Positions 3,533 to 33,225 of a stretch of 33,225 nucleotides of DNA are shown in pieces. The position numbers were made by a program, and so were the translations under genes. This DNA is from a virus. Location of the stretch: positions 1-33,225 of the IMG/VR virus record IMGVR_UViG_3300028558_000013; one strand, written 5' to 3'. A model generated the notes under the pieces. That model had not been told where the DNA came from and did no database searches. It saw nothing but the letters and a program-made list of their open reading frames with translations. Position 1 is the first letter of the stretch. Every line of letters starts with the position of its first letter.

Positions 3533-3551
3533 TGGTGGGAATCCTTATTGT

Positions 3552-6413: not shown

Positions 6414-6665
6414 TTACTCCACCGAGCCCAGCTCGAACGGGGGAGGGTCTAGACACGCATCAATGGGATTGATGGGAGCCTTGTCGGGGTCCGTCTCAGG
6501 CGGAGCCATCCGGTACTGACGCGGCTCAGCGGCCTGGACAGCGGGGGGTGCCGGGGCAGCTTCGAAAATGAGCTCAAGCCCGTTGTATCGGAACACGGAC
6601 ACATGAGCAGCACGAAGCTGGTTCAGCAGCTCGGGCAGAGAGGTAACGCTAATATCGATGGACAC
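6414..6665 (-). CDS. Hypothetical 83-aa protein between terminase and portal
   Basis: ORF track. GTG start 6 nt downstream of 17-mer copy B. The stop lies 3 nt before the portal start. Confidence 0.55.
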   Translation of the reverse strand: MSIDISVTSLPELLNQLRAAHVSVFRYNGLELIFEAAPAPPAVQAAEPRQYRMAPPETDPDKAPINPIDACLDPPPFELGSVE

Positions 6666-6671
6666 TCATCG

Positions 6672-6688
6672 GAACGGTTAAGTGGTTG
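6672..6688 (-). promoter_or_regulatory. 17-mer CAACCACTTAACCGTTC, copy B
   Basis: Exact copy. It begins 1 nt after the terminase stop (TAG at 6690-6692) and ends 6 nt before the GTG at 6665. Confidence 0.6.
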
Positions 6689-6689
6689 A

Positions 6690-8315
6690 CTAGTCAGGAG
6701 GGCCGTAGCTGTCGCTAGACGAGCCGCCTAACATGCGAGCCAGGCCCGGATCGTCCTGGTAGCCGTACACCGGTGGGGGTGGCGGCTGATTTATCAAGAT
6801 CTCGATCAATTGCGCCGGCGTAGGCGGAACCTTCGGGGGGCGATAGCCGTCATTCCAAGCGGCCAGCGCGTAGCGGAATGCCTCAGACGCATCCACCTTG
6901 TTCGGACCGATGGCCAGCTTGAACTTTCCACGGGCCAACTCACGGCGATCCCAAATCGCCCTTTCCCAGTCCGCGACAAGCGGTGACCCGACCATGCCCC
7001 TGATTCGTCCGAGCATGAGCAGCTCAGACGTTCGGCGAATCTGAGTGACCATGCCTTTTTTGTTGGCAGCGGCGATGAGAGGAATTCCATACATCTTCGA
7101 AAATTCGTCGTGTTCGGTTCCGTCCGCCCCGGCGTCATAGAACATCCCGACCACTGGTAGGTTCTTTTGGAGCAGCTGCAGAATCGGAAGCAGCTCACCC
7201 CACGTGAAGTGCTGGTCCCGTTCTGACGTCCAGTCGAAGACGTGCTGTAGAATCGGGGTGCTCGGGCCATAGCCTAGGGCTTGTATCGAAGCACGATCAG
7301 ACCCTCCGAGATCGAGAGCTACGAGTATCTCTGTGATGCCTTGGAGCAGCTCCCCAGCGAAAATGCGGCCAGAGCGAACGGCGATGGTGTCAGCCCACTT
7401 GGGGCGGGTGGGCTCGTAGGTGTTCCGAATCGGCTCGTAGCGATACGGCTTGCCCGCGTCGATATCGTAGACAAGCTCACCCTTCCACTGGCGTCGGGCT
7501 TGGGGGTCTTCCTCTGAGAGGTGGCGAGCGGCTAGCCATTTCTCGAACATCTCCCGCTGACGCTTTAGAAATGGGTTGTCGAGACGTGACCAGCCGTGGC
7601 GCTCGTACTCTGGCGGGTCCGCCACCAGCTCCTTGCCGTTGGCCTGTGCTTCTGCAGTGGCGTCCTCGTACTGCTTGGCCTCCATGAGCTTGCGCCAAAA
7701 CCATCCACCCTTGGCTCGGGGGAGTGAGCCGATACAGATCAGTCGGCCAGGGTTGGGATGTTCGTCGGTGAGGTCGGTGAGTCGGTCTACGATCACGTCC
7801 TCGATGAGGGGCTCTAAAACGGAATCAACCCGCTCTTGAACCTCGTCTAGGCAGACCACGCCACCGGCCATGCTCATGCCAAGGAAGACCCACGCCTGAG
7901 AGACGTCGTCGGCGCCTGCGAACTGGGCTACCGAGCCGTTAGGGAAGGTGGTGGTCAGGTCCGAGTCTTTGTGCTCACAGATAATGCCCGCCTTCTTGAG
8001 CATCTTTTTCCACGGGCGCCACGCCACCCGCTTCGCCTGGTCTGCCGTGATCGCCAGATAGAGAAAAGGTGTCTCGGGGGTGTCCAGGCAGGCGTTGGCA
8101 CCGATCTTGAGGATCGGGTACGTCTTGCCAGCTCGGGGGGTGGCTCCTACGATGAGTTTCTCTGCCGTCGATCGCAGTAGACGAAGCTGGCCCTCATGGA
8201 CCCGTCCGTCAGGGGTGGTGGAGAATGATTCGTCCGTCCACAGTGCTCGCTGGCGCGCGTTGATGGCGCAGAGCTTGGCTTGCGCTTCCTCGGGCGAGAC
8301 TGGCTTACGCGCCAT
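6690..8315 (-). CDS. terL: Terminase large subunit
   Basis: 541 aa with a Walker A-like VGATPRAGKT and Walker B GVVCLDEVQ. The C-terminal half carries acidic motifs (LVALDLGGSD, MFYDAGADG) as in RNase H-fold terminase nucleases. It lies upstream of the portal. Confidence 0.85.
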   Translation of the reverse strand: MARKPVSPEEAQAKLCAINARQRALWTDESFSTTPDGRVHEGQLRLLRSTAEKLIVGATPRAGKTYPILKIGANACLDTPETPFLYLAITADQAKRVAWRPWKKMLKKAGIICEHKDSDLTTTFPNGSVAQFAGADDVSQAWVFLGMSMAGGVVCLDEVQERVDSVLEPLIEDVIVDRLTDLTDEHPNPGRLICIGSLPRAKGGWFWRKLMEAKQYEDATAEAQANGKELVADPPEYERHGWSRLDNPFLKRQREMFEKWLAARHLSEEDPQARRQWKGELVYDIDAGKPYRYEPIRNTYEPTRPKWADTIAVRSGRIFAGELLQGITEILVALDLGGSDRASIQALGYGPSTPILQHVFDWTSERDQHFTWGELLPILQLLQKNLPVVGMFYDAGADGTEHDEFSKMYGIPLIAAANKKGMVTQIRRTSELLMLGRIRGMVGSPLVADWERAIWDRRELARGKFKLAIGPNKVDASEAFRYALAAWNDGYRPPKVPPTPAQLIEILINQPPPPPVYGYQDDPGLARMLGGSSSDSYGPPD

Positions 8316-8784
8316 TGGGCGGGTAGATCGTCAAGGAGCCGCTGGCCAGTGCCGCAGTGAGGGCTACAGCGACCGTCTGAAAGGGTAGATATGGCCGAAA
8401 CCTTAGGGTGTACCCGTGCCTCTCAGCTTCTTTTGCGAACCTGCCCGCAGTCGGCATGAACGCACAACTAATCTCGCTAGGGCACTGGACACCAGCGTGT
8501 GTCAGGAGTGCCCGCGCAATCCCTCGCTTCCTGACCCCGAGTTTCACATTGACCCAAGCCACGGTGCTGGGATCACGCCAGCATATCCAACCCAAGATCG
8601 TGTCGTCCGGGGCTACGGCGACAGCGACCGTCCAGAGCGCCAGCAGCGGCTCTATCTGGTCAACCAGGATCTGACCGTGGACAGCTTGGGCATAGGCGCT
8701 ATTGCTCTGGTAGGAACGCACGAACGAATCGAGCAAAAAGGGGCGGTCTTCGACGGTGGCGGGGCGGATTTGAATCTTGGACAT
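8305..8784 (-). CDS. GNAT-family N-acetyltransferase
   Basis: 159 aa. Motif A-like VKLGVRKRGIARALL is preceded by ILGWICW beta strands, and the N-terminus (IRPATVEDRPFLLDSF) is typical of GNATs. It overlaps the terL start by 11 nt. Confidence 0.7.
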   Translation of the reverse strand: MSKIQIRPATVEDRPFLLDSFVRSYQSNSAYAQAVHGQILVDQIEPLLALWTVAVAVAPDDTILGWICWRDPSTVAWVNVKLGVRKRGIARALLTHAGVQCPSEISCAFMPTAGRFAKEAERHGYTLRFRPYLPFQTVAVALTAALASGSLTIYPPNGA

Positions 8785-8785
8785 T

Positions 8786-9373
8786 TTAAGCTCGTCTCTT
8801 GGTTCGTCCCGGGACTAGGAGTGTGTTAGTAGGCAGCTTCATGGCGCGGCAGTGACTCTCAAAAATGGTTCGGATGTTCTGACGACTTTTCTTGTGCCGC
8901 TTCTTGATGTCGGCTGTGATGCACCCAGCGTCAGCGAGATCGAGTAGCAGGCGCTTGGTCGGGCCGTCGGGGAGCCGGTGGGCGCCAGCGCTGAAGACGC
9001 TCCAGGCTTGCGCGATGGGGGTAGCAGCTACCGAGGCGGCTCCATAAAGGGACTCGGCTTCGAGCTGGGCAGTCTCCAGCGTGAGGACGGGTTCTTCTCT
9101 GTCTGCGTCCTCGATCTGGATGTAGCGGGAGACGAGCGGTCTCTTACACTTGCTGCAGTTGCAGCTTCTACTTTTGCGATGTGTTGGCTTTGACTGTTTC
9201 GGGTCGTCGGGTGCTTCGACTTTGTCGTCTTCGAAGGATGACGCTCTGAATTTATTGAGGTCGGCTCCAGCCTCAATATCCCGAAAGCCCGAACGCTTGA
9301 GCTTCCGATCCCAGATAGCCTGGAGTCGTTGAAACTCGGGATCCCTGGGACCCCGGGGCGGTCTCTGTGGCAC
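8786..9373 (-). CDS. Hypothetical basic protein (possible DNA-binding protein or small-terminase candidate, by position only)
   Basis: 195 aa with a GTG start. It contains a Cys cluster (SCNCSKCKRP) and a basic helix-rich C-terminus, and lies two genes upstream of terL. Confidence 0.5.
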   Translation of the reverse strand: MPQRPPRGPRDPEFQRLQAIWDRKLKRSGFRDIEAGADLNKFRASSFEDDKVEAPDDPKQSKPTHRKSRSCNCSKCKRPLVSRYIQIEDADREEPVLTLETAQLEAESLYGAASVAATPIAQAWSVFSAGAHRLPDGPTKRLLLDLADAGCITADIKKRHKKSRQNIRTIFESHCRAMKLPTNTLLVPGRTKRRA

Positions 9374-9822: not shown

Positions 9823-10145
9823 TAGTTCGCAGGACCCTCCACCAGCTCCGCGGGCACCTCGGGCATTGCCTGATCGACCTTCTCTTCCGCTTTCGCCTTA
9901 GCGGCCTTTGCCTCGTCTACGATGCGGGCAACGACTTCGCGGACCCTGTCTTCAATTCCGAGAACTTCGATAACGGCGCTGACCACCACCTGAGTGTGAC
10001 CGACGTACTCAGCGAGCTGCTGGTTGTGGCCGTCATGCTCCTGGCGAGCGTTGTCGAGCGATTCGACCGCGCGACCAGTGAGGCCGACATATTTGTTAAA
10101 GGCGTCTTCGAGATTTTTGATACGGATTTTGTTCGAGGGCTGCAT
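9822..10145 (-). CDS. Hypothetical coiled-coil protein
   Basis: ORF track, 107 aa. Its translation-initiation region TAGAAAGCTCCCAAATGCAGCC is nearly identical to the one at 10428. Confidence 0.6.
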   Translation of the reverse strand: MQPSNKIRIKNLEDAFNKYVGLTGRAVESLDNARQEHDGHNQQLAEYVGHTQVVVSAVIEVLGIEDRVREVVARIVDEAKAAKAKAEEKVDQAMPEVPAELVEGPAN

Positions 10146-10263
10146 TTGGGAGCTTTCTAGTGTTGGGAGTTGGGATTACGGGGGCGGGGGTGCTGTCTAC
10201 TCGGATGCGGCCTGGAGTGCCGCAGCGATTGCCGCGCGAGCTTCACCACCAAGACAGCTCGGC

Positions 10264-10428
10264 TCATAGCTGAGCGGGTCGAGGTTCGACCAACCGAATA
10301 CGAGACGGCCAGTCACCTTGTGAGGGATAATGACGATGATTTGGGGGGAGAAGTGGAATCGTGGTTGTTTCCACGAAGTGACAGCTGTACAGCGTCTCCA
10401 GCTCCTGTAGTTCGGTCATTGGCTGCAT
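10264..10428 (-). CDS. Small hypothetical ORF (54 aa), possibly the 5' part of a frameshifted gene
   Basis: ATG at 10428 preceded by TAGAAAGCTTCCAA. It is below the track length cutoff. A second frame with protein-like translation continues to the TAG at 10197-10199. Confidence 0.3.
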   Translation of the reverse strand: MQPMTELQELETLYSCHFVETTTIPLLPPNHRHYPSQGDWPSRIRLVEPRPAQL

Positions 10429-10463
10429 TTGGAAGCTTTCTATATTTGGGGTGTGGATAGGAG

Positions 10464-12398: not shown

Positions 12399-12862
12399 AC
12401 GCGCAGCACTCCAGCGATACGAGGATCAGGTAGGTCGTGTGGATGTTCGAATACGCCCGTCCCATTGCGGCTCTTGCCGTCGGGGGACGTGTTCGCGGCT
12501 ATACAGGTGAGCCCAGTGACCGTGCCGTCGATGCGTACGACGTCGGTGACGATCGAGACGTGACCAAGGCCATTACCGTGATCCTCGATTATTAAATCCC
12601 CTGGCCGGACGTCTTCGAACGGGACAACCAGGTGCTGATTTATTGCGAGTAGATGTAACGCCCCTGCAGACGGCTTGAGCTGCGTCTGGGGGTCTACGTC
12701 GAGCACCATGCAGCAGGCGTAGGCAGCGCAGTAGGAGCAGCCTGGAGGGCATCCGAGACGATGGAGCCAGGTGTCGATCTCAGGCGAGGAGTTCGGAGCT
12801 ACCTCACGAACAAAAAGAAATGAACGGCAGTGGGAGATGAGTACGGGCGCAGCTAGAGGCAC
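12389..12862 (-). CDS. NlpC/P60- or CHAP-like cysteine peptidase (endolysin candidate)
   Basis: 157 aa with a GTG start. A candidate catalytic Cys sits in GCSYCAAYACC and a downstream His in GDLIIEDHGNGLGHVSIV, as in phage cell-wall cysteine peptidases. It is the first gene of the leftward arm. Confidence 0.5.
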   Translation of the reverse strand: MPLAAPVLISHCRSFLFVREVAPNSSPEIDTWLHRLGCPPGCSYCAAYACCMVLDVDPQTQLKPSAGALHLLAINQHLVVPFEDVRPGDLIIEDHGNGLGHVSIVTDVVRIDGTVTGLTCIAANTSPDGKSRNGTGVFEHPHDLPDPRIAGVLRVCR

Positions 12863-12869
12863 AGATCTC

Positions 12870-12882
12870 TAGTAGCGAAACT
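12870..12882 (-). promoter_or_regulatory. 13-mer AGTTTCGCTACTA, leftward-facing copy
   Basis: Exact reverse complement of the copies at 13123-13135 and 18254-18266. It ends 7 nt before the GTG at 12862 and overlaps a perfect 9-bp hairpin (12878-12899). Confidence 0.55.
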
Positions 12883-12991
12883 CCCGTGAACGGGAGTTTG
12901 CCCGCACCCACCGAAATGATGGGGCGGGTCTCCAGTTCGAAGGCACTGTCAGAGGGTATGTAGCGAAGCTGGAATCAGCCCGTACACCCGA

Positions 12992-13010
12992 GGCATTTTA
13001 AAAAATGCGG
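12992..13010. promoter_or_regulatory. Candidate operator GGCATTTT-AAAAA-ATGCGG (AT-rich palindrome core GCATTTTAAAAAATGC)
   Basis: It lies in the divergent control region. A shorter relative, GGCATTTTATGCGG, occurs at 13064-13077. Confidence 0.3.
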
Positions 13011-13063
13011 CGCGTTAACCGCCCATTGTGGTGATTAATAAATGGGTACTGCTGGTTGTGGTG

Positions 13064-13077
13064 GGCATTTTATGCGG
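13064..13077. promoter_or_regulatory. Candidate operator GGCATTTTATGCGG
   Basis: It shares both half-sites with 12992-13010. Confidence 0.3.
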
Positions 13078-13122
13078 TCGAAAAGAGAGACTTAGGGGGT
13101 CGCAATCTCCTAAGTAGCAGAA

Positions 13123-13135
13123 AGTTTCGCTACTA
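13123..13135 (+). promoter_or_regulatory. 13-mer AGTTTCGCTACTA, rightward-facing copy
   Basis: Exact copy 24 nt upstream of the ATG at 13160. The leader GAAAGGATCGAACGATG follows and recurs at 18315-18331. Confidence 0.55.
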
Positions 13136-13159
13136 GACACATCAGGAAAGGATCGAACG

Positions 13160-13375
13160 ATGACAAAGCTCCAAGAGGTACTCGAATTCATCAAAAAGAC
13201 CGAGGGGACGCAAATCACGAACCGGAAGATATCGATCGCGGCAAACATCGGCTACGCGCAGACAGCCGCAATGTACGTTCACACGTTGATCGACACCGGC
13301 AAGATCGAGATCGTACAGACCACACGTGGATGGCACGGCGGCACTACTTACCGCGTGGTGTCGGAGGCAGAGTAA
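13160..13375 (+). CDS. Small winged-helix/HTH DNA-binding protein (Cro-like early regulator candidate)
   Basis: 71 aa and the first gene of the rightward arm. ITNRKISIAANIGYAQTAAMYVHTLIDTGKIEIV reads as an HTH plus wing. SD is AGGAAAGGA. Confidence 0.55.
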   Translation: MTKLQEVLEFIKKTEGTQITNRKISIAANIGYAQTAAMYVHTLIDTGKIEIVQTTRGWHGGTTYRVVSEAE

Positions 13376-13377
13376 TC

Positions 13378-14301
13378 ATGGCCGGGTATACGCCATTGTG
13401 GTCGTCTCTACTCGATTCGTCGACTTGGGCTGAGCCACCAGATATTCGATGCGTCTGGCTCACTCTGCTCTTGATGAAAAATCGACACGGTTACGTTGCG
13501 GCTTCCGTACTGGGATTGCAGCGGCGGGCTGGTGTCAGCATGGAGACGACGTTGCGGGCCCTAGAGCTTTTCTTGGCTCCCGATCCATTCAGCAGGACGA
13601 AGGATAACGAAGGTCGGCGTCTGAAAGAGGTGGATGGTGGGTGGATGGTCCTGAATTCAGAAAAATACAGGAGCGGGAAGACCGATGAGGAGAAGGCGTC
13701 TATTGCGGCCGAAAAGGAAGCGGCGAGGTTGGCAAAGGATGCGGAACGGAAGCGGCATGAACGTGAACTCAAGCGTCAGTCCAAAAACGTCCAGGAGCGT
13801 CCGAAGTCGTCCGAAGTCGTCCTAAAAACGTCCATTTCACAATCGGACGAAACTCGGACGCTGTCCAGTGGGGTTGCCAATGAAAACACCGGGTTGCAAA
13901 ACGCGTCCATGGACAAACACGAAAAATTGCCACATTCACATTCACATTCACATTCACCCAATCAACAGAAGGGTGTTGGCTTTGGACCGAAACTGAGTCC
14001 GGAGGAAAGACGTCAACTCGACTGTTTCACTGCCTCATTCTCCGACTGGCCTGCTCCTTCACCTGGATTCAATCCGGAGAAAAGACAAAAAGCTCAAGAG
14101 GCATTCATGGCACGTAACTTCACCGTCTCCGAATATATCCGGTTCCAGACTGCCCTAGAAGCCCGAGTCCAGGCATTCCGAGATGACACCACGTCTGACG
14201 ATCCGAGACGACTCCTAGGAACCTTCACCAACTTCGTCACCAACTGGGTAGATAAGCCAGAAGTCACTAAATCAGCTGCTCCAATCCAAGAGATCTACTA
14301 A
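13378..14301 (+). CDS. Replication initiator or replisome-organizer-like protein
   Basis: I prefer the ATG at 13378 (GGAGG 10 nt upstream, 2 nt after the previous stop) over the track start at 13330. The N-terminal domain (WSSLLDSSTWAEPPDIRCVWLTLLLMKNRHGYV ... LELFLAPDPFSRTKDNEGRRL) resembles phage replication organizer N-domains. It contains the iteron array and lies directly upstream of the helicase. Confidence 0.6.
   Translation: MAGYTPLWSSLLDSSTWAEPPDIRCVWLTLLLMKNRHGYVAASVLGLQRRAGVSMETTLRALELFLAPDPFSRTKDNEGRRLKEVDGGWMVLNSEKYRSGKTDEEKASIAAEKEAARLAKDAERKRHERELKRQSKNVQERPKSSEVVLKTSISQSDETRTLSSGVANENTGLQNASMDKHEKLPHSHSHSHSPNQQKGVGFGPKLSPEERRQLDCFTASFSDWPAPSPGFNPEKRQKAQEAFMARNFTVSEYIRFQTALEARVQAFRDDTTSDDPRRLLGTFTNFVTNWVDKPEVTKSAAPIQEIY
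13783..13860. repeat. Iteron array (putative origin of replication) inside the initiator gene
   Basis: CGTCC occurs at 13788, 13798, 13808, 13818 and 13829 (spacing 10, 10, 10, 11). Inverted GGACG occurs at 13845 and 13856. AAAAACGTCC occurs twice and CGTCCGAAGT twice in tandem. Confidence 0.5.
13931..13957 (+). repeat. (CACATT)4 CAC hexanucleotide microsatellite encoding HSHSHSHS
   Basis: Read directly from the sequence. It is in frame within the initiator gene, about 70 nt after the iterons. Confidence 0.9.
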
Positions 14302-18253: not shown

Positions 18254-18266
18254 AGTTTCGCTACTA
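18254..18266 (+). promoter_or_regulatory. 13-mer AGTTTCGCTACTA, third copy
   Basis: Exact copy 62 nt upstream of the ATG at 18329. The leader GAAAGGTACGAACGATG matches 15 of 17 nt with 13146-13162. Confidence 0.5.
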
Positions 18267-18328: not shown

Positions 18329-19192
18329 ATGAAGACGTCCGATTTTCCCAAGGTTCGATTTGAGCTGATAACCCCAGCCGTTGCTCAGGAACTGCTTGAC
18401 GCAACTCCGCCCGGGACCAACTTTCGCAAGCTGTCAGAGAATGAAGCGAGGAAGTATGCCCGCTTCATGGCGGCAGGAACGTTTCGGTCACTGAACGGGC
18501 AGACGATTTCGATCGATAACGACGGCGCGATCGTCGACGGTCAACACCGGCTTCGTGCCATTGTTATTTCCGGGCAATCGTTGTGGATGTTGGTCGTTCG
18601 CGGGGTCGAGACATCTGACGCCGCTACCATCGATGTCGGCTATATTCGCCGATTGGTTCAGGTACTACAGGGCGAAGGTGTCAAGCACTACAATGTCGCC
18701 GCTGCCTTGGCGTACTGGAGTCAGTGGTATTTGACTGGTTCCCGTCCGGACCGACGGACCGATCTCCAGCAGCAGTTGAATTTCGTTCACAAGACGCCCT
18801 TCGTCGCGGAAGCATGTGGTCTGGGCGCGTATGTTGACCACGTAATTCCCGGGGCGCACGGTGCCTTGCTGTATCTTCTTGCGAAGAATGCAGGATGCGA
18901 GGGTCAAGCTCGCGAGTTCCTGACCTCGATCGCAACTGGCGCCAACCTTGGGCTGAATAGCCCCGCCTTCAGGCTTCGCAAGAAGATGCTGGGATTTGAG
19001 CACACCAAGGGCGCCAAGAAGACGATGGACGCCAGGGGGAAGCTCGCACTTCTGATCAAGTGCTGGAACCTTCACCGATTGGGACTACCTTGCCTCCGTC
19101 TCCATTGGCAGGATGGAGAGGCGTTCCCCGCTTTCGAGTTCGGACCTTCCTGCGAAGCTTCCGAAACGGCTCCAAAGTCGGTCAAGGCTTAA
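18329..19192 (+). CDS. ParB N-terminal domain (ParB/Srx-like) protein
   Basis: 287 aa. The motif IVDGQHRLRAIV is the ParB-like nuclease-domain signature. Confidence 0.65.
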   Translation: MKTSDFPKVRFELITPAVAQELLDATPPGTNFRKLSENEARKYARFMAAGTFRSLNGQTISIDNDGAIVDGQHRLRAIVISGQSLWMLVVRGVETSDAATIDVGYIRRLVQVLQGEGVKHYNVAAALAYWSQWYLTGSRPDRRTDLQQQLNFVHKTPFVAEACGLGAYVDHVIPGAHGALLYLLAKNAGCEGQAREFLTSIATGANLGLNSPAFRLRKKMLGFEHTKGAKKTMDARGKLALLIKCWNLHRLGLPCLRLHWQDGEAFPAFEFGPSCEASETAPKSVKA

Positions 19193-19195
19193 CCC

Positions 19196-19363
19196 ATGCT
19201 GCTCAAAGTCAAAGCAGCCGCCGAACTCCTGGGAGTGAACGTCAAGACGATCCACGCACTGATCGCCGATGGTCTCCCCCACTTCAAGGTGAGCCAGAGG
19301 ATCATCCGCATCGACCGAGATGTCTTGCTCTCTTGGGTCGAATCCAAGCGCAAGACGGCTTGA
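19196..19363 (+). CDS. xis: Excisionase-family HTH DNA-binding protein, 55 aa (not in ORF track)
   Basis: My translation is MLLKVKAAAELLGVNVKTIHALIADGLPHFKVSQRIIRIDRDVLLSWVESKRKTA. It shows the excisionase/MerR-type HTH pattern and lies immediately upstream of the integrase. Confidence 0.7.
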   Translation: MLLKVKAAAELLGVNVKTIHALIADGLPHFKVSQRIIRIDRDVLLSWVESKRKTA

Positions 19364-19397
19364 CGAGTGGCAAAAGAACCGATAGGCTCCTAGGACC

Positions 19398-20492
19398 ATG
19401 GGCGCTTACAAGCGGAAGTTCAAAGACACCTCCACTGGCTTGGTCACCGTCGAAGACCAGTGGAGGTATCGCAAGCTCGTGACCCTGCCCGACGGGCGTA
19501 AAGAGCGAGTGACAGGTACTCCAGCCATCAACACTAGAGCTGCAGCTGTCTCGGCTGAGAAAGCCCATGTTGACCGCGTCCTGGACCCGAAGAAAGCCGC
19601 GTCTGGTCTGACGTTCGCGTCGTACTGGTCTACTCGATGGTCTCCCGCATTCGGTAAGAAGGGCGCGAAGTCGACTATCGAGTCACGTAACGACATTTTC
19701 GAAAACCACCTGACAGCCGCTATCGGCTCCATTCAGCTCGGCGCCATCAACAAAGAACGGCTTGACCGCCTGGTTGCGACGCTGGAAGCCAAAGAGCTTA
19801 AGCCTCGTACCGTTCGCAACGTACTCAATGTGCTTCGCCGTGCCCTGCGAGATGCGTATGAGTGGGATTTGCTGCCTGCCCTGCCCCGCTTCCCCAAGAT
19901 CAAACCGCCACAGACCAGTTTCGACTACCTGACCCTTCCTGAGGTGGGGCTACTGCTTGCCGGTGCCCGCGATGCGCACGACCGCGCCCTACTCCATCTG
20001 GCTGCATGTACGGGTCTTCGAGCTGGAGAGATCCTTGCCCTCAAGTGGGGAGACATCGACGAAACCGCCTCTGTAGTGCGTGTGTCGCGGTCCAGGACGC
20101 GCGCAGCGACGAAGAGCACCAAGTCAGGTCGAGCACGGTCCATCCCGCTGACTGCGGACCTCCTACGCGATCTGAGAGCCCATGGAGGCGAAGACAGAGA
20201 GCGAGAGGGGCTAGTATTTCATCGTGGCGGGCAACCGATGCTCATCGGCCGATTCCAAGAGGCGCTCTGGCGCACGCTGAAGAACGCCAAGCTGCGTCGC
20301 ATCCGCTTCCACGACCTTCGTCATTCGTTCGCGTCGAACCTCATCTCTGCCGGCGTGCCCATCGTCCAGGTACAGCACTGGCTCGGACACAGCACCGTGA
20401 GCACGACCGAGATCTACGCGCACCTTGCCCCGCGGTCGGGTGACCAGCAGATCGAAGCTCTGGCCGGCATCAAGATGCTTACCGCCGCTTGA
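19398..20492 (+). CDS. int: Tyrosine recombinase (phage integrase)
   Basis: 364 aa. Motifs are AACTGLRAGEILALKWGDID (Arg box), RFHDLRHSFAS (H-x-x-R) and HWLGHSTVSTTEIYAHL (catalytic Tyr). Confidence 0.92.
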   Translation: MGAYKRKFKDTSTGLVTVEDQWRYRKLVTLPDGRKERVTGTPAINTRAAAVSAEKAHVDRVLDPKKAASGLTFASYWSTRWSPAFGKKGAKSTIESRNDIFENHLTAAIGSIQLGAINKERLDRLVATLEAKELKPRTVRNVLNVLRRALRDAYEWDLLPALPRFPKIKPPQTSFDYLTLPEVGLLLAGARDAHDRALLHLAACTGLRAGEILALKWGDIDETASVVRVSRSRTRAATKSTKSGRARSIPLTADLLRDLRAHGGEDREREGLVFHRGGQPMLIGRFQEALWRTLKNAKLRRIRFHDLRHSFASNLISAGVPIVQVQHWLGHSTVSTTEIYAHLAPRSGDQQIEALAGIKMLTAA

Positions 20493-20514: not shown

Positions 20515-20742
20515 GGTGGCAAAGTGCGTTTCGGCTGCATGAAAATGCCTAGGAGCTGCGGTAAGATAGACTCCAAACAGTATCACTCTTCAAAACCGAT
20601 GGGGCGCCGCGAAAGCGTGCGCTCGGCGGGTTCGATTCCCGTGCGCTTCCGCTCTTTCGCATAGTTAGACGGCAAAGCAAGAGCCGTTCCAGACCATCAG
20701 AATCCAGTCAAGTCCATCTCGCGTGGCAAAATGGTGGCAAAA
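20515..20742. other. attP region: tRNA-derived core flanked by GTGGCAAA arm-type repeats
   Basis: GGTGGCAAA occurs at 20515-20523, GTGGCAAAA at 20723-20731 and GGTGGCAAAA at 20733-20742, all direct, bracketing the core at 20588-20651. The region starts 23 nt after the integrase stop. Confidence 0.55.
20588..20651 (+). tRNA. Partial tRNA gene (3' portion only, anticodon loop to discriminator), tRNA-Sec(UCA)-like; the attP core
   Basis: The anticodon loop CTTCAAA (TCA at 20590-20592) is followed by a long variable arm (an 8-bp stem with a GAAA tetraloop). The T-arm is GCGGG-TTCGATT-CCCGT. Then come the 8-nt acceptor strand GCGCTTCC and discriminator G, an 8/5 architecture. No matching 5' half lies upstream. 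Confidence 0.55.
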
Positions 20743-23697: not shown

Positions 23698-24099
23698 TTA
23701 GCTCAGACTCTTCACGATGCCGATTGCGCGGACTGTGCCGCTACCGCTTGTCGGCGTGAACGTGTAACGAATACACCTCGCGCACACGCTGGCCTGGACA
23801 AATTGATTTTCTCCGCTGACACCAGAGACGACTGCGACGATCACAGGAGTGAACGCAGCCGTGATATCCGAGAACGTCCCGGTGGTCTGCGCCTGGCCGT
23901 AGGCATTGTTGAGCGGGGCCACGAAATCGTTGCTGACTTCGATCTTCCAGCTACCCGAAAGACCAGTGGTGACCAGCTGGACACCGACCCAATCGCCTTC
24001 AGCGAGGTCCATGGGACCAGCAACAGCTGGAGTGGTGTCGGTGACTGTCTTGGTCAGGAAGTCAAACTCTTGGCCGTTTCCAATAACAACTCTACCCAT
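23698..24099 (-). CDS. Hypothetical virion protein, beta-rich by composition
   Basis: ORF track, 133 aa. The ATG lies 4 nt after 17-mer copy C and has no SD. Confidence 0.6.
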   Translation of the reverse strand: MGRVVIGNGQEFDFLTKTVTDTTPAVAGPMDLAEGDWVGVQLVTTGLSGSWKIEVSNDFVAPLNNAYGQAQTTGTFSDITAAFTPVIVAVVSGVSGENQFVQASVCARCIRYTFTPTSGSGTVRAIGIVKSLS

Positions 24100-24103
24100 A
24101 ACG

Positions 24104-24120
24104 GAACGGTTAAGTGGTTG
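24104..24120 (-). promoter_or_regulatory. 17-mer CAACCACTTAACCGTTC, copy C
   Basis: Exact copy in the 56-nt gap between the 263-aa and 133-aa genes. Confidence 0.6.
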
Positions 24121-26809: not shown

Positions 26810-28461
26810 TACTCAGACACCATCGAGCCGTCAGGAAGTTTAAATGCACGCTTCCCAGCGTTTGTCAGGCCGATGCTGACAGTCCCGGGAGGCAGTCCGG
26901 CAGGGATACCCGTGTCAGTCTTCGGGGCGAAGTCACCTCGGAAGCCAGCGACGTGACGTCGGGCTCTCTCAGCCTGTGCGGCGTTCGAAGCCGATAGGCC
27001 GGTCTGGGGGTTGAGTTCCTGATTCTCGAACTGCGACACCAGAGCGTTGACCTGCTGGCGCTTTTCGTCGCCCACACCTTTGAGGAGTGAGCCGAGCTGC
27101 TGTGTGTACTGCTCACCAGCCTGAGGGTTGCCCGAGACGGAGCCCCACTGAGACGAGAGACGGTCACCAAGCGTCTGCATCCCCTGGAGCAGGTGAACAG
27201 ACGTCGTCGTCGATTTACCGCCCGAGATCATTCCTCCAGCCTCTTCCTCGATCGCCTTGATCGTGGTGAGTGCTCGGTTCTTGTCGCCTGACGAAATCGC
27301 CTCTCCCAGCTCCTTCTGCATCGACGAGAGGCGAATCAGCTGGGTACGGGGCCCGGGGCTTCGAGTCGTGCCGTCCAGCTGCTTCTCAAGGAAGCTCTTG
27401 GCGCGTGTATCCAGCTCCTTGAACTGCTTGTCATCGGCCTTCGCAGCTGCAGCCTTCGCAGACGCTTCCGCTGCCTGAGCCCGCATGAGGGAGATTTGAG
27501 CGAGGTTGAGACGAGCTTTCTCGATTCCTTCGACACCCTTGCTCTTGAGCTGGGCCGCTAGGACATCTCCCTGTGTGCGATCGACCTTGCCCTGAGCCTC
27601 ATTCATCACCGAGTTGATATGGTCGGCAACGGAGAGATTGGTGGCCGAATGTTGGATCTGCAGCTCGGACAAGTCCGCCGCTTGCTGCAGGCGCAGCTGG
27701 TCTGTCATACGCCCGCGTGCTTCGGCGTACTTATAGAGGTTGTCGATACGGTCTTTTTCGCGTGAATAGAACGTGTCAACGTTGTGCTGGATGATGTTGT
27801 AAGCGGCGTTTGGCTGTCCGAGCATGCTGGACGCGAACCCGCCGATCGTTGATGCGGCAACAGCCCAAGTGAGTTTCCCTTCATCCCCTGCCCAGAAGTC
27901 TGGGATCTTCGAGTTGTGGGCTTCCTCTAGGGCTTTGTTTGCCTGTGCCGTCGACTCTGCGAGCGCCTGTGAATGCTGCGCCCGCGTCTGACGGATTTCT
28001 TCGGACTGGGCGAGGTGTTGGGCCTGTGCGTCCTCTTGAGCACGGGCAACGGCTTCGCTCTTCTGCGCTTGCGCGTCTGCACTTAGGCGAGCGGCTGTCT
28101 GCTCTTCTTTATTTGCAGAGATGACCTGCTTTTCGAGAGAGCTACCCCCTCCCCCTCCACCAATGCCAGGTGATGCCGGAAGAGGGGGAGGCGGCGGGAG
28201 GTCGGTAGGCGATGTGGCGGGAGGCGCAACCGGAGCCGCTGGGACGGTTGGCGTGGGAGGCAGTAGAGACGGCGGGATCGTCACTCCCGCGGCTTGAGCG
28301 GCTGTGATATCTGCCGGCGTGGCCTGGATGGGGGCTGGCGCTACCGCGGTCGGGCGGGCAACGGCATCCGCCCGGAGCATGTCGAACTCGTTAGCCGGTG
28401 TCTGGTCAGGTTCGACTTCCGCGCCAGGAGGGAGCGGCTGCAAAGGATCGAAGTTCGGCAT
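26809..28461 (-). CDS. Internal virion or ejection-like protein (Pro-rich N-terminus, long Gln/Ala coiled coil)
   Basis: 550 aa. PPPPPLPASPGIGGGGGGSS is followed by an extended heptad-like region. Confidence 0.55.
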   Translation of the reverse strand: MPNFDPLQPLPPGAEVEPDQTPANEFDMLRADAVARPTAVAPAPIQATPADITAAQAAGVTIPPSLLPPTPTVPAAPVAPPATSPTDLPPPPPLPASPGIGGGGGGSSLEKQVISANKEEQTAARLSADAQAQKSEAVARAQEDAQAQHLAQSEEIRQTRAQHSQALAESTAQANKALEEAHNSKIPDFWAGDEGKLTWAVAASTIGGFASSMLGQPNAAYNIIQHNVDTFYSREKDRIDNLYKYAEARGRMTDQLRLQQAADLSELQIQHSATNLSVADHINSVMNEAQGKVDRTQGDVLAAQLKSKGVEGIEKARLNLAQISLMRAQAAEASAKAAAAKADDKQFKELDTRAKSFLEKQLDGTTRSPGPRTQLIRLSSMQKELGEAISSGDKNRALTTIKAIEEEAGGMISGGKSTTTSVHLLQGMQTLGDRLSSQWGSVSGNPQAGEQYTQQLGSLLKGVGDEKRQQVNALVSQFENQELNPQTGLSASNAAQAERARRHVAGFRGDFAPKTDTGIPAGLPPGTVSIGLTNAGKRAFKLPDGSMVSE

Positions 28462-29318
28462 TAGAGCGTAGACGGGCCGGAGGGCGGGTTGCCGTACGGG
28501 TTGCGCTCTTCCTCGTCCTCAGGCAGCACCGAGGAGAGACCCAACGTCGACGGTGAATAATTTCCCGTCTTCGGGTTGATATCGGGCCCTTCGTAGGGCA
28601 GCGTCGACGCGAGGGAGCTGGTCGGTGCGTGAACACCAGCTCCCGCATTGTTGGCAGCTTGCCCAGCGGCGATCCCCGCTGCAGCGTTTGGGTTCACAGT
28701 CGGTGGCTTGGCCAAGAGAGCCAGCCCTCCCGCGGCTGCATTCAGCCCAGACAGCTCCATTTTCTGCTTGTTAGCTGCGTCTGCAGCTGCAACAGCGTCG
28801 CGCTCCTGGCCCTCGGTTCGGAGGTCGCCGCTCGCAACGCTGGACATGTTATTGAGGACTCCACCGAGCTGTTGGTCCGCGGCCTGGCGCTCCCTTACAG
28901 CTGCCAGTTCAGCGGACTGATTTGCCGCCGCGCCCGACTGTGCGGCTGCGAGAATGGCCGCGTAGCGCGCGAGAGCGCCGGTATTACCTCGGGCGCCTGC
29001 CGCCATAGAGGACGCGTTGCGGTTAATCTGGTCTAGTCCGGCCCCCAGATCGGCGCTGGCTACGCTAGGAGTCTTGCCCGAGGCCACATCACGCAACGTC
29101 TGGGCAAGCTGCTGCTGCTGGGCAAATGCCTGGCGCTCGCGCTCTAGTTGCTCGTCAAGCTGCTGTTGAGTAAATGAGGAGCTGGGACCGCCCGAAGACA
29201 GCATGCCTTCGAGGGTGCCACCAAGCCCGCCACCAATAGCAGCGCCAGCTGGGCCACCGATAAATGCACCAAGCCCAGTTCCGGCGACGGGCAGAAGACT
29301 ACTAAGCGAAAATGCCAT
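28461..29318 (-). CDS. Internal virion-like protein with a glycine-zipper N-terminus
   Basis: 285 aa. The N-terminus is LLPVAGTGLGAFIGGPAGAAIGGGLGGTLEG. The ATG lies 6 nt after 17-mer copy D. Confidence 0.55.
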   Translation of the reverse strand: MAFSLSSLLPVAGTGLGAFIGGPAGAAIGGGLGGTLEGMLSSGGPSSSFTQQQLDEQLERERQAFAQQQQLAQTLRDVASGKTPSVASADLGAGLDQINRNASSMAAGARGNTGALARYAAILAAAQSGAAANQSAELAAVRERQAADQQLGGVLNNMSSVASGDLRTEGQERDAVAAADAANKQKMELSGLNAAAGGLALLAKPPTVNPNAAAGIAAGQAANNAGAGVHAPTSSLASTLPYEGPDINPKTGNYSPSTLGLSSVLPEDEEERNPYGNPPSGPSTL

Positions 29319-29324
29319 ACACCT

Positions 29325-29341
29325 GAACGGTTAAGTGGTTG
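29325..29341 (-). promoter_or_regulatory. 17-mer CAACCACTTAACCGTTC, copy D
   Basis: Exact copy. The TAA stop of the 1115-aa gene (29331-29333) lies inside it. Confidence 0.6.
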
Positions 29342-32300
29342 TTCCCGGAACTCGCTGCGACCCCTTGAGGTGTGCTTGCCCCTTTTCGACTCCAGCCAGT
29401 ACCCCGATGAGGTCCAGTGCGAGCCCTCGCCCCGGGGTAAGAGCGCCGTCAGGGCCTTTATTGGAAACGGAGCACGAGATACCGATCGAGGTCGAGCGCT
29501 TGATCGTCGGCGGGTAGTCGAGGAGCAGTGCGGTTCCGGCAAGGAGGTGGGCAGCGGGGTACGTCGTCGATTTACCGCCGAAGTCGTTGTACGTGAGCAC
29601 CGTTTCCAGATAGCAGTCCGTGAACACCTCGCCCTGGAGCTGGACGTTCCAAATACATTTAGTCGTGCGCTTGCCGCCGAGGTGGAGGGGAGCAAGCGTG
29701 AAGCCCATGGTGATCGGCCAGACGATTTGCCCGCCGCTGCTGACCTGCAGGTCGTAGTAGTTCGTCGTTTGCTGCTGCCAGACCAGTGACGACGTCGTAT
29801 TTACGCTCGCGAATATTGGTTGGCCCTGGTGCACACCTAGGAGGGCAGGCGCCTGCGGGAGAGTCCACTTCATCCAGCCGCCTAGAATGGTGTCGTAGAC
29901 CGTGAGGTACTGACCGTTGGTGACGATGAGCCGGTTCTGTCCGTCTAGAACCATGTCGGTGATGGTGCCGGACAAGTAGTCCTGTGCTGCTTGGCCCAAC
30001 CATTTGTTTTCGAGAGACCGCGTAATTAACCACGCTCCGCCCGAACTCGACGCGTACGCGCAACCCTCTCGGATGACCGCGGTGGGGCCGGTGCAGCCGC
30101 TCTCGAATGGCAGCCTGATGGGGACGGGGATCGTCGCGTTGGCGACCTCGTCTACGGTGGGACCAGGGAGTTGAGTCTCGGGTAGGTACCAAATTGAGTT
30201 CGCACAGAAGATCAGAAGGAACGAGTCCATCGGCGCGATCGCGGTGATCTCGTCGGCGGCGGGAAGCGTGATTCGGAAGCCGACGTTGAACCACGGAGAT
30301 TCGCCCTCGACGCGCTCGCCGGAGAACCAAAGCGCGTTGTCGTAGCCGATCAGCCACGATCGATCCTGCCAGACGCAACCGCCACGGAAGGCGGGCGCAG
30401 GGTAGCGCGGTAGGAGCCCCTGGTCAGTGTAGAGCACCTCTCCCGTTCCCTGCAGACCCCCGACATCGGAGTAGGAAAAAGACGCCGCGGTCGAATCGTT
30501 GTACAGCGGTGTCAGGTCGCTAGTGATCTTGTAGCTCAGCGTTGTCGGCGTTCCGACGGGAGGCGAGCCGCTGATTTGCTCGAACGCTGTACGGTACGCG
30601 CTGGCGACGATGTATTTCTTCAGCGTCGGGTAGACCGGGTGGCCACCGAGCACCTGATCCAGGTGCACAGCATTGGTCGCGGTGAATGCGAAGGCGGGCG
30701 ACGGCAGAGAGCGGTCGATGAGCCCAGACCGAGACGTGTACTCCGCCACCATGCGATAGAGGTACTGTCCGATCGAGGCGAAGGCGGTGGACACCGCGCC
30801 GACGGTGATCGCCGGACACTCGTACGCGCACAGCCCGTGCTCCGAGTAGAAACCCTGATCGAGGATCCCGGCCATCAGCCCCGGCACGAAGGTCAGTGCG
30901 TCCACGGAGAACGACCGACCGACGTCAGGGCCGATCGTAAACTGCTTGAGGCCGACGGTGCTATCTCCCGCGGAGAGGTTTAGGGCGAACCCGCCGCTGC
31001 TTGGGATGTTCTCGATCCGATACGCGGCAGGGAAAATGATCGCCCCATTCGAAAGTGTGCACGGCGTGGCAAGCACTCGATTCGGTCCCTGCGCCGACAG
31101 AGCGCCGGTATTGTCGGGAATGATCACTTGCCAGTCAGCTGCTGCGATCGCGTACTCGAAGCGGCCTGCGATCGCTTGCACGGAGTCCAGCGGAATCACG
31201 TACCAGGTGGGTTGGAGGTTGTTCGCGCTCCCGAGGCGGTATGGGAGGTGGCTGTTTGTCGCGGGCGGAGTAAGCGGCCCCCACTTTCGCGCGGGGTAAT
31301 AGGCCAGGGCGCAGTAGTCCGAGCCGACGGCAAACGGCCTTGACACAAGGGACAGTCCGCGACGCGTGACAATATTCGTAGAGGTGCCAGAGAAGGGGAC
31401 GTTGACCGTCTGGGTGTACTGCCCGAGCTGGTCAGGAAAGAAGTCGCTGGCGGAGTCGTTTCGCCCGGAAGGAGGACCCGAGATGGAGTAGGTGGTCGCC
31501 TCGGGGAGGCCGAAGAAATCCATCACGGTGTACGCAACGGTCAGATCACCTGACCCGTCGGTATGCTCGTAGCCGGTCATCCCAGAGATCCACTTGAACG
31601 CGGATGCCGAAGCCGAGCCGATGCCACTGGCGACCTGAGGATATGTGTTGATCGCGGTCAGGGAGGTCGAGATCTGGTAGGCCCAAATGTTATAGATCGT
31701 CGACGTGACTGGGTTGTCGACAGTGAGTAGCTTCCCACCAACGGCGGACGGAGTGGTCTTTGCCCAAGCGCAGACGTGAGCCCCGCATGCGATGGAGGTG
31801 TCAGTGTTAGCCGTCGTCGTCAGGCTCGTGCCGTTCCAAGAGAACGTGGTGAAGTTGATCCCACCAGTGAGGACGGGGCGGGCGAGGACAACAAACTGAT
31901 TGCGAAAGTACGTGACGTCCCAGTCGCTCGACGTAGTCGCCGACGACCCGGAGATCGACGTCTGGAATGCGCCCGTCACGTCATAGACGACGATGATCAC
32001 GGTGTTCGCGACGGAGTTGTCCAGGAACACGTAAAAATACGACCCGTCGGCGACAACGCGCACCTTCTTGTACGGGGTGCCGTTAGCGAAGGTGAACACA
32101 GGGCGAACGTCAGTGCCCGTGGATTCGTCGCGAAACATCACCCGGATTCCGTATAGGTCGGTTGGGGTCAGCGTCGCGGAGGCGCTGTTGCTCGTCGCCT
32201 GGTTCGCAATCTCCTTCAACACGGTACAAGAGACGTTCCCGATCATGGCCATGTCCGGAGCCTGGACCTGCGAGTTGGCCGCGTAGATAGAGCGCGAACG

Positions 32301-32678
32301 CAACGTTTGAGGCAGGACAACCGTGGGCTTTCCATCAGGCGTGGAATTCAGCAGCCACTGGGTCGATCGGCTGTAGAGCCGGTTGCCCGCGATCACGTCG
32401 ATGCCTGACGTCGCGGCAAAGAGCTGCAGGCCCGTGGGAATGGTGAAGACGGTTGTTCCGGTGGCGTCGACGGTCGGGGTGTCGTACGAGGTGAAGCCGG
32501 GGCGCTGTTCGGCGCGCACGTGCGTGACAGAGCCGTCTGCAACGCGCGGGTGGTCGTACTGCCGGACGACCGTATTGACGAGATCGGTGAACCGGCCGAT
32601 TGGCTTGTCGGGCAGCGGCGCGAGCTGATCTAGCGTCGAGAGGGGGACGTCAATTGGCGTTTGTTCTGGCTTCGGCAT
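29331..32678 (-). CDS. Large tail structural protein (nozzle, tubular or spike-like)
   Basis: 1115 aa, the largest ORF. Its Ser/Thr/Gly/Val-rich composition suggests a beta-rich fold. It is coupled TAAATG to the upstream 136-aa gene. Confidence 0.65.
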   Translation of the reverse strand: MPKPEQTPIDVPLSTLDQLAPLPDKPIGRFTDLVNTVVRQYDHPRVADGSVTHVRAEQRPGFTSYDTPTVDATGTTVFTIPTGLQLFAATSGIDVIAGNRLYSRSTQWLLNSTPDGKPTVVLPQTLRSRSIYAANSQVQAPDMAMIGNVSCTVLKEIANQATSNSASATLTPTDLYGIRVMFRDESTGTDVRPVFTFANGTPYKKVRVVADGSYFYVFLDNSVANTVIIVVYDVTGAFQTSISGSSATTSSDWDVTYFRNQFVVLARPVLTGGINFTTFSWNGTSLTTTANTDTSIACGAHVCAWAKTTPSAVGGKLLTVDNPVTSTIYNIWAYQISTSLTAINTYPQVASGIGSASASAFKWISGMTGYEHTDGSGDLTVAYTVMDFFGLPEATTYSISGPPSGRNDSASDFFPDQLGQYTQTVNVPFSGTSTNIVTRRGLSLVSRPFAVGSDYCALAYYPARKWGPLTPPATNSHLPYRLGSANNLQPTWYVIPLDSVQAIAGRFEYAIAAADWQVIIPDNTGALSAQGPNRVLATPCTLSNGAIIFPAAYRIENIPSSGGFALNLSAGDSTVGLKQFTIGPDVGRSFSVDALTFVPGLMAGILDQGFYSEHGLCAYECPAITVGAVSTAFASIGQYLYRMVAEYTSRSGLIDRSLPSPAFAFTATNAVHLDQVLGGHPVYPTLKKYIVASAYRTAFEQISGSPPVGTPTTLSYKITSDLTPLYNDSTAASFSYSDVGGLQGTGEVLYTDQGLLPRYPAPAFRGGCVWQDRSWLIGYDNALWFSGERVEGESPWFNVGFRITLPAADEITAIAPMDSFLLIFCANSIWYLPETQLPGPTVDEVANATIPVPIRLPFESGCTGPTAVIREGCAYASSSGGAWLITRSLENKWLGQAAQDYLSGTITDMVLDGQNRLIVTNGQYLTVYDTILGGWMKWTLPQAPALLGVHQGQPIFASVNTTSSLVWQQQTTNYYDLQVSSGGQIVWPITMGFTLAPLHLGGKRTTKCIWNVQLQGEVFTDCYLETVLTYNDFGGKSTTYPAAHLLAGTALLLDYPPTIKRSTSIGISCSVSNKGPDGALTPGRGLALDLIGVLAGVEKGQAHLKGSQRVPGTTT

Positions 32679-33089: not shown

Positions 33090-33225
33090 TTACGGGAGAT
33101 ACCCCCCGTCGCCGTTACAACCCCCGTCGGACCTGTGGGTGAGTGCGACTTGGCCCGGCTCTTCCATGCGGTTGGCGGACATGGCCTCGATGCGCTTGGT
33201 GAGCGATGCGAGCTTCCTCTCTTGA
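33090..33225 (-). CDS. 3' end (last 44 codons plus TAA) of the junction-spanning 508-aa virion gene, visible here because of the terminal duplication
   Basis: This is the same reading frame as 1-1518 carried through the repeat. The stop TAA at 33090-33092 directly abuts the ATG at 33089 (TAAATG coupling). Confidence 0.7.
   Translation of the reverse strand, partial: QERKLASLTKRIEAMSANRMEEPGQVALTHRSDGGCNGDGGYLP
33099..33225. repeat. Terminal direct repeat, right copy (identical to 1-127)
   Basis: Same comparison as for 1-127. Confidence 0.97.

Follow-up and report, generated by a model that had tools for sequence, protein, structure and literature searches.

The window analysed here is the whole 33,225-nt stretch of the IMG/VR virus record IMGVR_UViG_3300028558_000013 (positions 1 to 33,225), and the element in question is a 17-nt motif that occurs there in four exact copies among the virion genes. 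On comparison with related phages, this 17-mer is probably the core of a phage-specific late promoter, a reading to which we give a probability of roughly 55%. Bases 1-127 of the window recur exactly as bases 33099-33225 (a 127-bp direct repeat), so that the assembly closes into a circle with a complete genome of 33,098 bp, and a 508-aa adaptor gene (SU10-type) crosses the ends of the window. At least two further samples yielded assemblies of this phage, and a search for identical g83 proteins in other samples returned this phage only. About 35 genes, including the virion genes, form a run on one strand, and genes for a DnaB-type helicase and a tyrosine integrase lie on the opposite one. One of the internal virion proteins has a lysozyme-like PHROG match. 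Rfam and tRNA scans of the window gave no match.

Downstream of the integrase gene lies a segment that corresponds to tRNA-SeC from its anticodon loop to its 3' end (attP). An exact 29-mer of this attP matched GTDB species genomes in 16 stretches on 14 contigs; most of these are labelled as Myxococcota, Myxococcales or delta-proteobacterial metagenome-assembled genomes, with 5 of the 16 labelled merely 'proteobacterium' or 'Pseudomonadota'; in all five loci examined with ARAGORN, the 29-mer lay within tRNA-SeC. Because attP matches the tRNA-SeC of Myxococcota-labelled genomes, a myxobacterial host is implied, and the phage would be a temperate, podovirus-like virus that integrates at the selenocysteine tRNA gene. 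Against 50,697 cultured phage records, neither megablast of 11 kb nor tblastn of the major capsid protein (MCP) yielded a match, an MCP profile detected no prophage in the GTDB species genomes, and the closest relative in a single-protein MCP scan of JGI metagenomes stood at 61%. The features of the window are collected in Table 1.

Table 1 Motif copies, genes and other repeats in the window (SD, Shine-Dalgarno; HTH, helix-turn-helix).
Feature	Positions	Strand	Remarks
Site A (17-mer)	6672-6688	-	Between the TerL stop codon (TAG, 6690-6692) and the GTG of g83; 6 nt to the start (CGATGA-GTG)
Site B (17-mer)	3674-3690	-	Within the 3' end of the scaffold gene (last 46 codons), coding for ANHLTVQ; 141 nt before the capsid ATG
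Site C (17-mer)	29325-29341	-	Its inner TAA terminates the 1115-aa gene; 6 nt to the g285 ATG (AGGTGT-ATG)
Site D (17-mer)	24104-24120	-	In a 56-nt gap after g263; 4 nt to the g133 ATG (CGTT-ATG)
Large terminase (TerL)	6690-8315	-	Upstream of site A
g83	6414-6665	-	First gene after site A; GTG start, no SD box; N-terminus from the GTG kept in relatives
Portal	4521-6410	-	phrog_156
Putative scaffold	3552-4490	-	Position between portal and MCP; holds site B
MCP, SU10-type	2288-3532	-	PF17236 in relatives
Predicted capsid mRNA 5' leader	3533-3673	-	Conserved stretch CCACCCGCGGCCAATGGGAA and AAGGA box
g285	28461-29318	-	First gene after site C; opens the internal virion protein block (g550, g620)
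g133	23698-24099	-	First gene after site D
1115-aa virion gene (g1115)	29331-32678	-	Stop codon within site C
g195	8786-9373	-	Candidate reader; N-terminal LQxxWDxKLxxSGFxDIE, disordered linker, C-terminal four/five-helix HTH domain
g159	8305-8784	-	GNAT acetyltransferase-like; upstream of and overlapping TerL
Integrase	19398-20492		Tyrosine integrase
attP	20590-20655		tRNA-SeC, anticodon loop to 3' end
13-mer, first copy	12870-12882	-	AGTTTCGCTACTA
13-mer, second copy	13123-13135	+	AGTTTCGCTACTA
13-mer, third copy	18254-18266	+	AGTTTCGCTACTA
30-nt repeat, first copy	10138-10167	-	87% identical to the second copy
30-nt repeat, second copy	10421-10450	-	87% identical to the first copy

The motif reads CAACCACTTAACCGTTC on the minus strand, in the sense of the virion genes, and GAACGGTTAAGTGGTTG on the plus strand. 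The original prediction had listed four exact copies in the same sense with no further copy visible by eye, and a scan of the whole window on both strands found just these four (sites A-D), with no fifth copy at up to three mismatches and without the many degenerate copies in random places and orientations that would have spoken against the prediction. In 100 dinucleotide shuffles, the mean number of 17-mer matches was 0.05 and the maximum was 1, with 0 of 100 reaching four; a chance origin of the four copies is excluded. Alignment of the four contexts showed that conservation ends at the edges of the 17-mer, so the earlier statement that the flanks are unconserved holds. Across IMG/VR, the exact 17-mer had only two chance matches, inside a gene of unrelated low-GC contigs. 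The distances of 6, 6 and 4 nt to the start codons at 6665 (g83), 29318 (g285) and 24099 (g133) had been given correctly, and site A is separated from the terminase stop codon by one base. The copy at 3674 (site B) is inside a coding sequence and not in a gap, a point that the prediction had missed. It had also regarded the lack of an SD box as peculiar to the three genes that follow the motif closely; this does not hold, since TerL, g1115, g550, g77, g54 and g107 are also without one.

The RNA of the motif is G-poor (one G in 17 nt) and unstructured. RNA folds of the four contexts revealed no common hairpin (z-scores +0.6 to -1.3), no intrinsic terminator (a G+C-rich hairpin plus a T run) is present at the motif, and the terminator scan stayed at the background level, all in agreement with the earlier view that the motif is hairpin-free and not a terminator. 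Its other exclusion, that of a sigma-70-like promoter, also stands: a consensus scan for TTGACA- and TATAAT-like hexamers 16-18 bp apart found none at sites A-D, and in the operons such hexamers are not enriched. No complement to the motif that might serve as a guide RNA exists in the genome at up to four mismatches on either strand. Eight nucleotides of the motif (ACUUAACC) appear complementary to the conserved stretch GGUUAAGU of 16S rRNA; this pairing was judged to be chance because the motifs of other lineages do not keep the pairing stretch.

Relatives were collected through 91 capsid protein homologues and via g285, with DNA taken from IMG/VR, JGI metagenomes, Logan, ENA and NCBI, 69 loci in all (L labels). 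The close relatives L005-7 (84-88% capsid identity), and L066 and L067-69 (both found via g285), have the window motif with few changes. L066, an 18-kb locus from a 24-kb contig, shows the same gene order as the window and has three sites, namely CAACCAGTTAGCCGATC at site B, CAACCATTTAACCGATC at site C, and TAACCACATAGCCGATC at site D, where the motif lies 37 nt before the start codon and an AAGGA box is present. Motif positions 7 and 11 vary freely among the close relatives. By comparison, CCGTTC in four of four window copies corresponds to CCGATC at every site of L005-7, L066 (B, C and D) and L067-69. Such a concerted change at all sites is what co-evolution with one trans-acting reader would predict. 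A clade consensus, AACCANWTANCCGWTC, searched over the 69 loci matched only the expected sense-strand sites, plus two chance contigs. All five close relatives retain the rare leucine codon TTA of site B while the adjacent amino acids vary, which indicates selection on the nucleotides. The stop codon of the upstream gene inside site C is TAA in L066 and TAG in L067-69; position 11 is thus A or G, and both keep the stop.

The distant relatives (42-61% MCP identity; from soil metagenomes) lack the window 17-mer and instead have exact 14-22-nt repeats of their own, at equivalent places and in gene sense. These are CCGAACTAAACCCACTTC in L021, GCCACGAATCCCCTA in L018-20, GCCACGAAATCCCT in L014, TAGCCCACAAAATCCCTGTTC in L042, GCAACAAATCCCC(A/C)TAG in L034 and L046, CTCAGTTCCGCTGTTTAGG in L011/12, and CAATTTCCCGCGTTTACGCGTC in L028/29. 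Placement was scored only where the contig extends far enough. A copy precedes the small gene before the portal (g83 or portal homologues) in L011, L014, L020, L021, L028, L034 and L042, another lies 90-155 nt before the MCP gene in every motif-bearing lineage, and a third precedes the g285 homologues, recognised by iterated hidden Markov model (HMM) search, in L014, L020, L021, L028, L042 and L046. Four lineages have an extra, more degenerate copy (site 0) before a GNAT-like gene upstream of terminase. The corresponding gene of the window, g159, has the RKRGIARALL sequence and weak Acetyltransf_7/10 matches, and seems closer to a GNAT acetyltransferase than to a small terminase subunit; its position is conserved in most lineages, and it has its own motif copy in these four. 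Four relatives in which terminase is on the opposite strand (L008, L010, L026 and L031) have only shorter elements, (T)TAGTCCACA / ATCCACAACC, located in the divergent region that precedes the portal operon and upstream of the g285 homologue.

Most of the lineage motifs can be aligned on a loose core made up of CCAC, four or five mostly A/T bases, and CC(C/G), and for this reason they look like diverged versions of one ancestral element. Positions are thus conserved while the sequence turns over in at least eight lineages. This bears on the idea that the repeats have no regulatory role and are recombination linkers, mobile-element remnants or chance products, which we find hardly credible. Chance is excluded by the shuffles, the unconserved flanks do not fit mobile-element ends, and direct repeats flanking essential genes invite lethal deletions, so that they would be expected to be lost unless selected.

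In L021, the big virion gene and the g285 homologue are separated by an endonuclease VII gene (19086-19700), after which come two motif copies at a distance of 226 nt from each other. The first of the two has one mismatch, is preceded by a perfect hairpin (TGTCTAT-CTTA-ATAGACA), and has only an 11-codon open reading frame (ORF) after it. The paired copies may reflect a non-coding transcript or a tandem promoter.

With start codons fixed from conserved N-termini, the distance between motif and start follows a simple rule, CCAC-N16-start, at 11 sites in four lineages (window A and C; L066 C; L067 C; L014 A and C; L020 0, A and C; L042 A and C). The spacing is N15 at L034 A, L046 C and L021 A. 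At the B sites there is no start codon at the N16 position, yet a purine is found there in seven of eight lineages. Where the start codon is more distant, an AAGGA/AGGA box is present: at all B sites, at L066 D (37 nt) and at L028 C (14 nt). The stretch between site B and the capsid gene contains a conserved block, GCACCCCGCGTCC, across lineages, with the window form GTCACCCGCGGCC; the corresponding regions in relatives are L014 9900-10000, L020 6897-6986, L042 8365-8440 and L034 6209-6302, and the L014 block is complementary to GGACGCGGG adjoining the ribosome-binding box. RNAalifold on this leader from four lineages gave -10.5 kcal/mol with essentially no covariation, which is weak support for a conserved fold.

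The strict sense orientation, the fixed 16-nt spacing at A and C, which is within reach of translation signals, and the G-poor, unstructured motif RNA are also what one would look for in an RNA-level element of a long polycistronic late mRNA, recognised by a phage-specified protein or RNA and acting either in processing, as a site of endonucleolytic cleavage, or in the SD-independent loading of ribosomes. The nearest known case is the start-associated sequence (SAS) of Cluster K mycobacteriophages, which is asymmetric, has a single orientation, lies 3-7 bp from start codons at nearly every copy, sometimes includes the upstream stop codon, and is unexplained in function (PMC3203893). The window motif resembles it in being asymmetric and single-oriented, in lying a few nucleotides before starts, in overlapping an upstream stop codon (site C), and in being absent from the host genome. 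However, the SAS is a 13-bp sequence with an AGGAG SD core, occurs in 11-19 copies at non-structural genes, and is conserved across subclusters (PMC3203893), whereas the motif here is found in 3-5 copies at virion genes, is lineage-specific, has no SD core (anti-SD pairing +0.3 to -3.8 kcal/mol), and has one conserved copy far from start codons, 141 nt in the window. This site B copy recurs in all motif-bearing lineages, 90-155 nt ahead of a gene that itself has an SD box; it adjoins no start codon, and a pure translation-initiation element is therefore disfavoured. The distance of 37 nt at L066 site D, the lack of a complementary guide RNA, and the L028 sites, which follow opposite-strand genes so that no upstream sense transcript is expected, also speak against an RNA-level element, and we consider it unlikely.

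The arrangement in L028 bears on transcription. Two divergent start codons enclose its site A, in a gap of 44 nt, and its site C is in a gap of 124 nt that follows minus-strand genes, among them the gene for a transmembrane coiled-coil XhlA-like protein. Since both sites follow genes on the opposite strand, a promoter is needed there. In L026, the block of small gene, portal, scaffold and capsid starts after a 427-nt divergent region. Judged from gene orientation, the motif-marked positions are operon heads in some genomes. The same locus L028 (1548-4076) encodes an 842-aa terminase with an intein (PF14890 Intein_splicing; PT-HINT weak).

These contexts also bear on a mechanism like that of ops or put, in which non-template DNA or nascent RNA loads a phage-specific elongation factor that renews anti-termination and helps to recruit ribosomes to SD-less genes. 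Operons that depend on RfaH lack SD boxes, ops is a short, asymmetric element, and ribosome recruitment has been proposed for RfaH; the sense orientation of the motif, its repetition along a ~25-kb transcription unit, and its placement before SD-less starts would fit such a scheme. Against it, no NusG/RfaH-like protein (NGN-KOW domains) was detected among the ORFs of the genome, intrinsic terminators are not enriched in the operon, the motif shows no significant RNA fold and no put-type structure, and the L028 sites would still require a promoter. An elongation-factor site of this kind is very unlikely.

A further alternative is that the motif binds a phage regulator without being a promoter, either as a stoperator silencing virion genes in the lysogen, as in L5, or as an activator site for a start further downstream. 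The phage appears temperate, with an integrase and attP in tRNA-SeC, and the Cluster A stoperators bound by L5 gp71 are likewise asymmetric 13-14-nt sites in short intergenic gaps, oriented with transcription, that co-evolve with their repressor (PMC9283540; see also PMC6550527). The window motif shares the asymmetry, the short gaps, and the single orientation relative to transcription. Nevertheless, L5 has more than 20 stoperators genome-wide, including one at the operator of the early promoter (PMC9283540), whereas each genome here has only 3-5 copies, four in the window, all in virion genes and at fixed spacing to start codons; at up to three mismatches, no copy exists elsewhere, including the early control region (12710-13160), where the 13-mer AGTTTCGCTACTA is found instead. 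Activator sites are better compared with the late promoters of the temperate phages P2 and Mu.

P2 and Mu have four activator-dependent late promoters each, depending on Ogr and C, respectively. The phage studied here is of similar size and would likewise have about four late promoters heading packaging, head and tail blocks with one shared recognition sequence. In those phages, however, the activator sites are dyad-symmetric, lie 43-55 bp upstream, and are combined with a sigma-70 -10 box; the present motif is asymmetric, has no -10 box, and is 4-6 nt from the start codon, and an activator centred 40-55 nt upstream would put the start inside the first gene. Neither the silencing nor the activating form explains the CCAC-N16-start rule, and we regard a regulator site as quite unlikely.

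Of the three options that the original prediction offered, the comparative data thus favour the late promoter and weaken the ops/put-like and RNA-level ones. The late promoter is preferred because of the syntenic, lineage-specific motifs, the concerted substitution, the N16 spacing with its SD complement, and the L028 contexts. Under this reading, the motif would be used four times on the virion-gene strand, with site A before g83 and the portal, site B before the capsid gene, site C heading g285 and the internal virion proteins, and site D heading g133 and the tail-end genes. The promoter element would be asymmetric, without a -35 partner, and transcription would start about 7 nt past the 17-mer, that is 17 nt past CCAC, so that the 17-mer would span about -23 to -7. 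At A, C and D, the first transcribed base would be the first base of the start codon or lie within 2 nt of it, the mRNAs would be leaderless, and a ribosome-binding box would not be needed. At site B, the capsid gene would receive a 135-141-nt leader with an AAGGA box of its own. The specificity of the reader would be set by the phage; as the phage encodes no polymerase, the most plausible reader is a phage protein redirecting the RNA polymerase of its host (Myxococcota), and the HTH protein g195 is one candidate.

Phage-specific late promoters as such are a known kind of element. The promoters of the T7 group (T7, T3, SP6 and K11) are similarly contiguous, asymmetric blocks of about 17-23 bp without a -35/-10 layout, near-identical within a genome and different between related phages, with copies that head gene blocks, one of them immediately before the capsid gene; all of these features were found for the present motifs. 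T7-group promoter sequences co-evolve with their reader, the single-subunit RNA polymerase of the phage. Unlike that group, the genome here has no single-subunit polymerase gene, and the motifs have neither the conserved initiating GGG nor an AT-rich -4 to -1 region; moreover, T7 transcripts have SD-containing leaders, whereas three of the sites here abut the start codon. In T4, late promoters consist of TATAAATA at -10 and are used by the host polymerase with the sigma-like gp55 and gp33, and other phage-sigma systems are SPO1 gp28/gp33-34 and phiEco32 gp36. As proposed here, the present system would be like these in redirecting the host polymerase to multiple late promoters, each with a single element near the start and no -35 box. 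It differs in its longer (14-22 nt), lineage-specific and G+C-rich element; moreover, searches revealed neither a gp55-like nor a sigma-70-family protein, and leaderless geometry is not a feature of T4-type systems. What appears distinctive is a long, contiguous, fast-diverging element of phage-polymerase type in a genome without a polymerase or a recognisable sigma factor, with the deduced start placed on the start codon, in an uncultured clade assigned to Myxococcota.

The search for a reader covered nearly all of the ~45 ORFs of the window. No T7-like RNA polymerase was found (no Pfam or PHROG RNA_pol match), the largest unassigned proteins are within the virion module, and a scan for catalytic motifs (two-barrel, and T7-type HDS/DxDGD) gave none in the large proteins, the one match being a trivial HDS in a 109-aa protein. 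Together with the Pfam, PHROGs and PDB sequence searches, this upholds the earlier remark that no RNA polymerase gene is recognisable in the genome.

The protein that attracted attention is g195. Its family has 42 cluster representatives at E <= 0.001 and no Pfam model, with an invariant N-terminal G..D.E...D motif and an HTH domain that is doubled in some members. Members give weak matches to LysR-type and other HTH models, and one distant relative has a weak Sigma70_r4_2 match; the window's own ORFs have no sigma-family match. The AlphaFold model of g195 has a mean pLDDT (predicted confidence score) of 76.6, with 96-98 in the C-terminal domain. Homologues lie upstream of terminase in nearly all lineages, and directly before the first motif copy in L014, L020 and L011. 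On this basis, g195 is only a lead as the candidate reader, and it could equally be the small terminase subunit.

Several observations weigh against the late promoter. Pfam, PHROGs and PDB sequence searches of nearly all of the ~45 ORFs revealed neither a polymerase nor a sigma factor, and no NusG-like protein or known late activator either; the nearest PDB folds of g195 (sigma region 4, FixJ/LuxR and KorA) all have E > 1 and are not significant; and the 10 kb preceding the L028 motif sites yielded no homologue of g195. L013 and L016 have no repeat at all. The spacing at window D is N14 and not N16, that at L014 site 0 and L021 C is N18-19, and the start site itself is deduced from spacing. 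SD-less starts are common in the window genome anyway. The stretch from -12 to -7 (CCGTTC, CCCCTA and TCCCTG) is G+C-rich, unlike known melting elements, and GTG-initiated leaderless mRNAs are inefficient in the organisms tested. A fuller form of the promoter reading, possible although still doubtful, is an undescribed phage-directed system in phages of Myxococcota, in which a factor showing no recognisable relation to sigma factors or known late activators, perhaps of the g195 family with its sigma-4-like HTH, would retarget the host polymerase to -35-less, G+C-rich elements about 17 nt long that set the transcript start on the start codon, and produce a largely leaderless late regulon, with the capsid gene as the leadered, SD-driven exception.

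If the promoter reading is true, the motifs provide a compact set of orthogonal promoter specificities, with at least eight sequence variants in related phages, in a phylum, Myxococcota, whose phage transcription is almost unstudied. It would also point to a novel specificity factor, since nothing polymerase- or sigma-like is encoded. The CCAC-N16-start rule predicts leaderless late mRNAs, and a regulon built on leaderless translation would be unusual. The case bears on the Cluster K SAS puzzle as a second, unrelated one, in which the comparison of relatives distinguishes being close to a start codon from being required for translation. In annotation, the motifs can serve as marks of operon boundaries for a clade without cultured members.

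The window contains other repeats. The 13-mer AGTTTCGCTACTA occurs in three exact copies, all in gene sense, and precedes both divergent early operons and g287; it is likely to be an early promoter or operator class separate from the 17-mer. The two copies of the 30-nt repeat contain TAGAAAGCTYCCAAATG / TAGAAAGCTYCCAAATGCAGCC, and the ATG in them starts g107 and g54 (a 54-aa ORF); a related TAGAAAG lies 9 nt before the ATG of g149. This repeat may represent a third (middle) promoter class, which would also initiate at or near the start codon. As the repeat families are distinct, the early operators/promoters are not the 17-mer, and the presence of three exact upstream families fits temporal promoter classes. 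In addition, the first gene of the replication operon, a 323-aa ORF on the plus strand, contains a hexanucleotide tandem, (CACATT)3-4, at 13931-13952 and a 10-nt tandem, CGTCCGAAGT CGTCCGAAGT-like, at 13798-13822.

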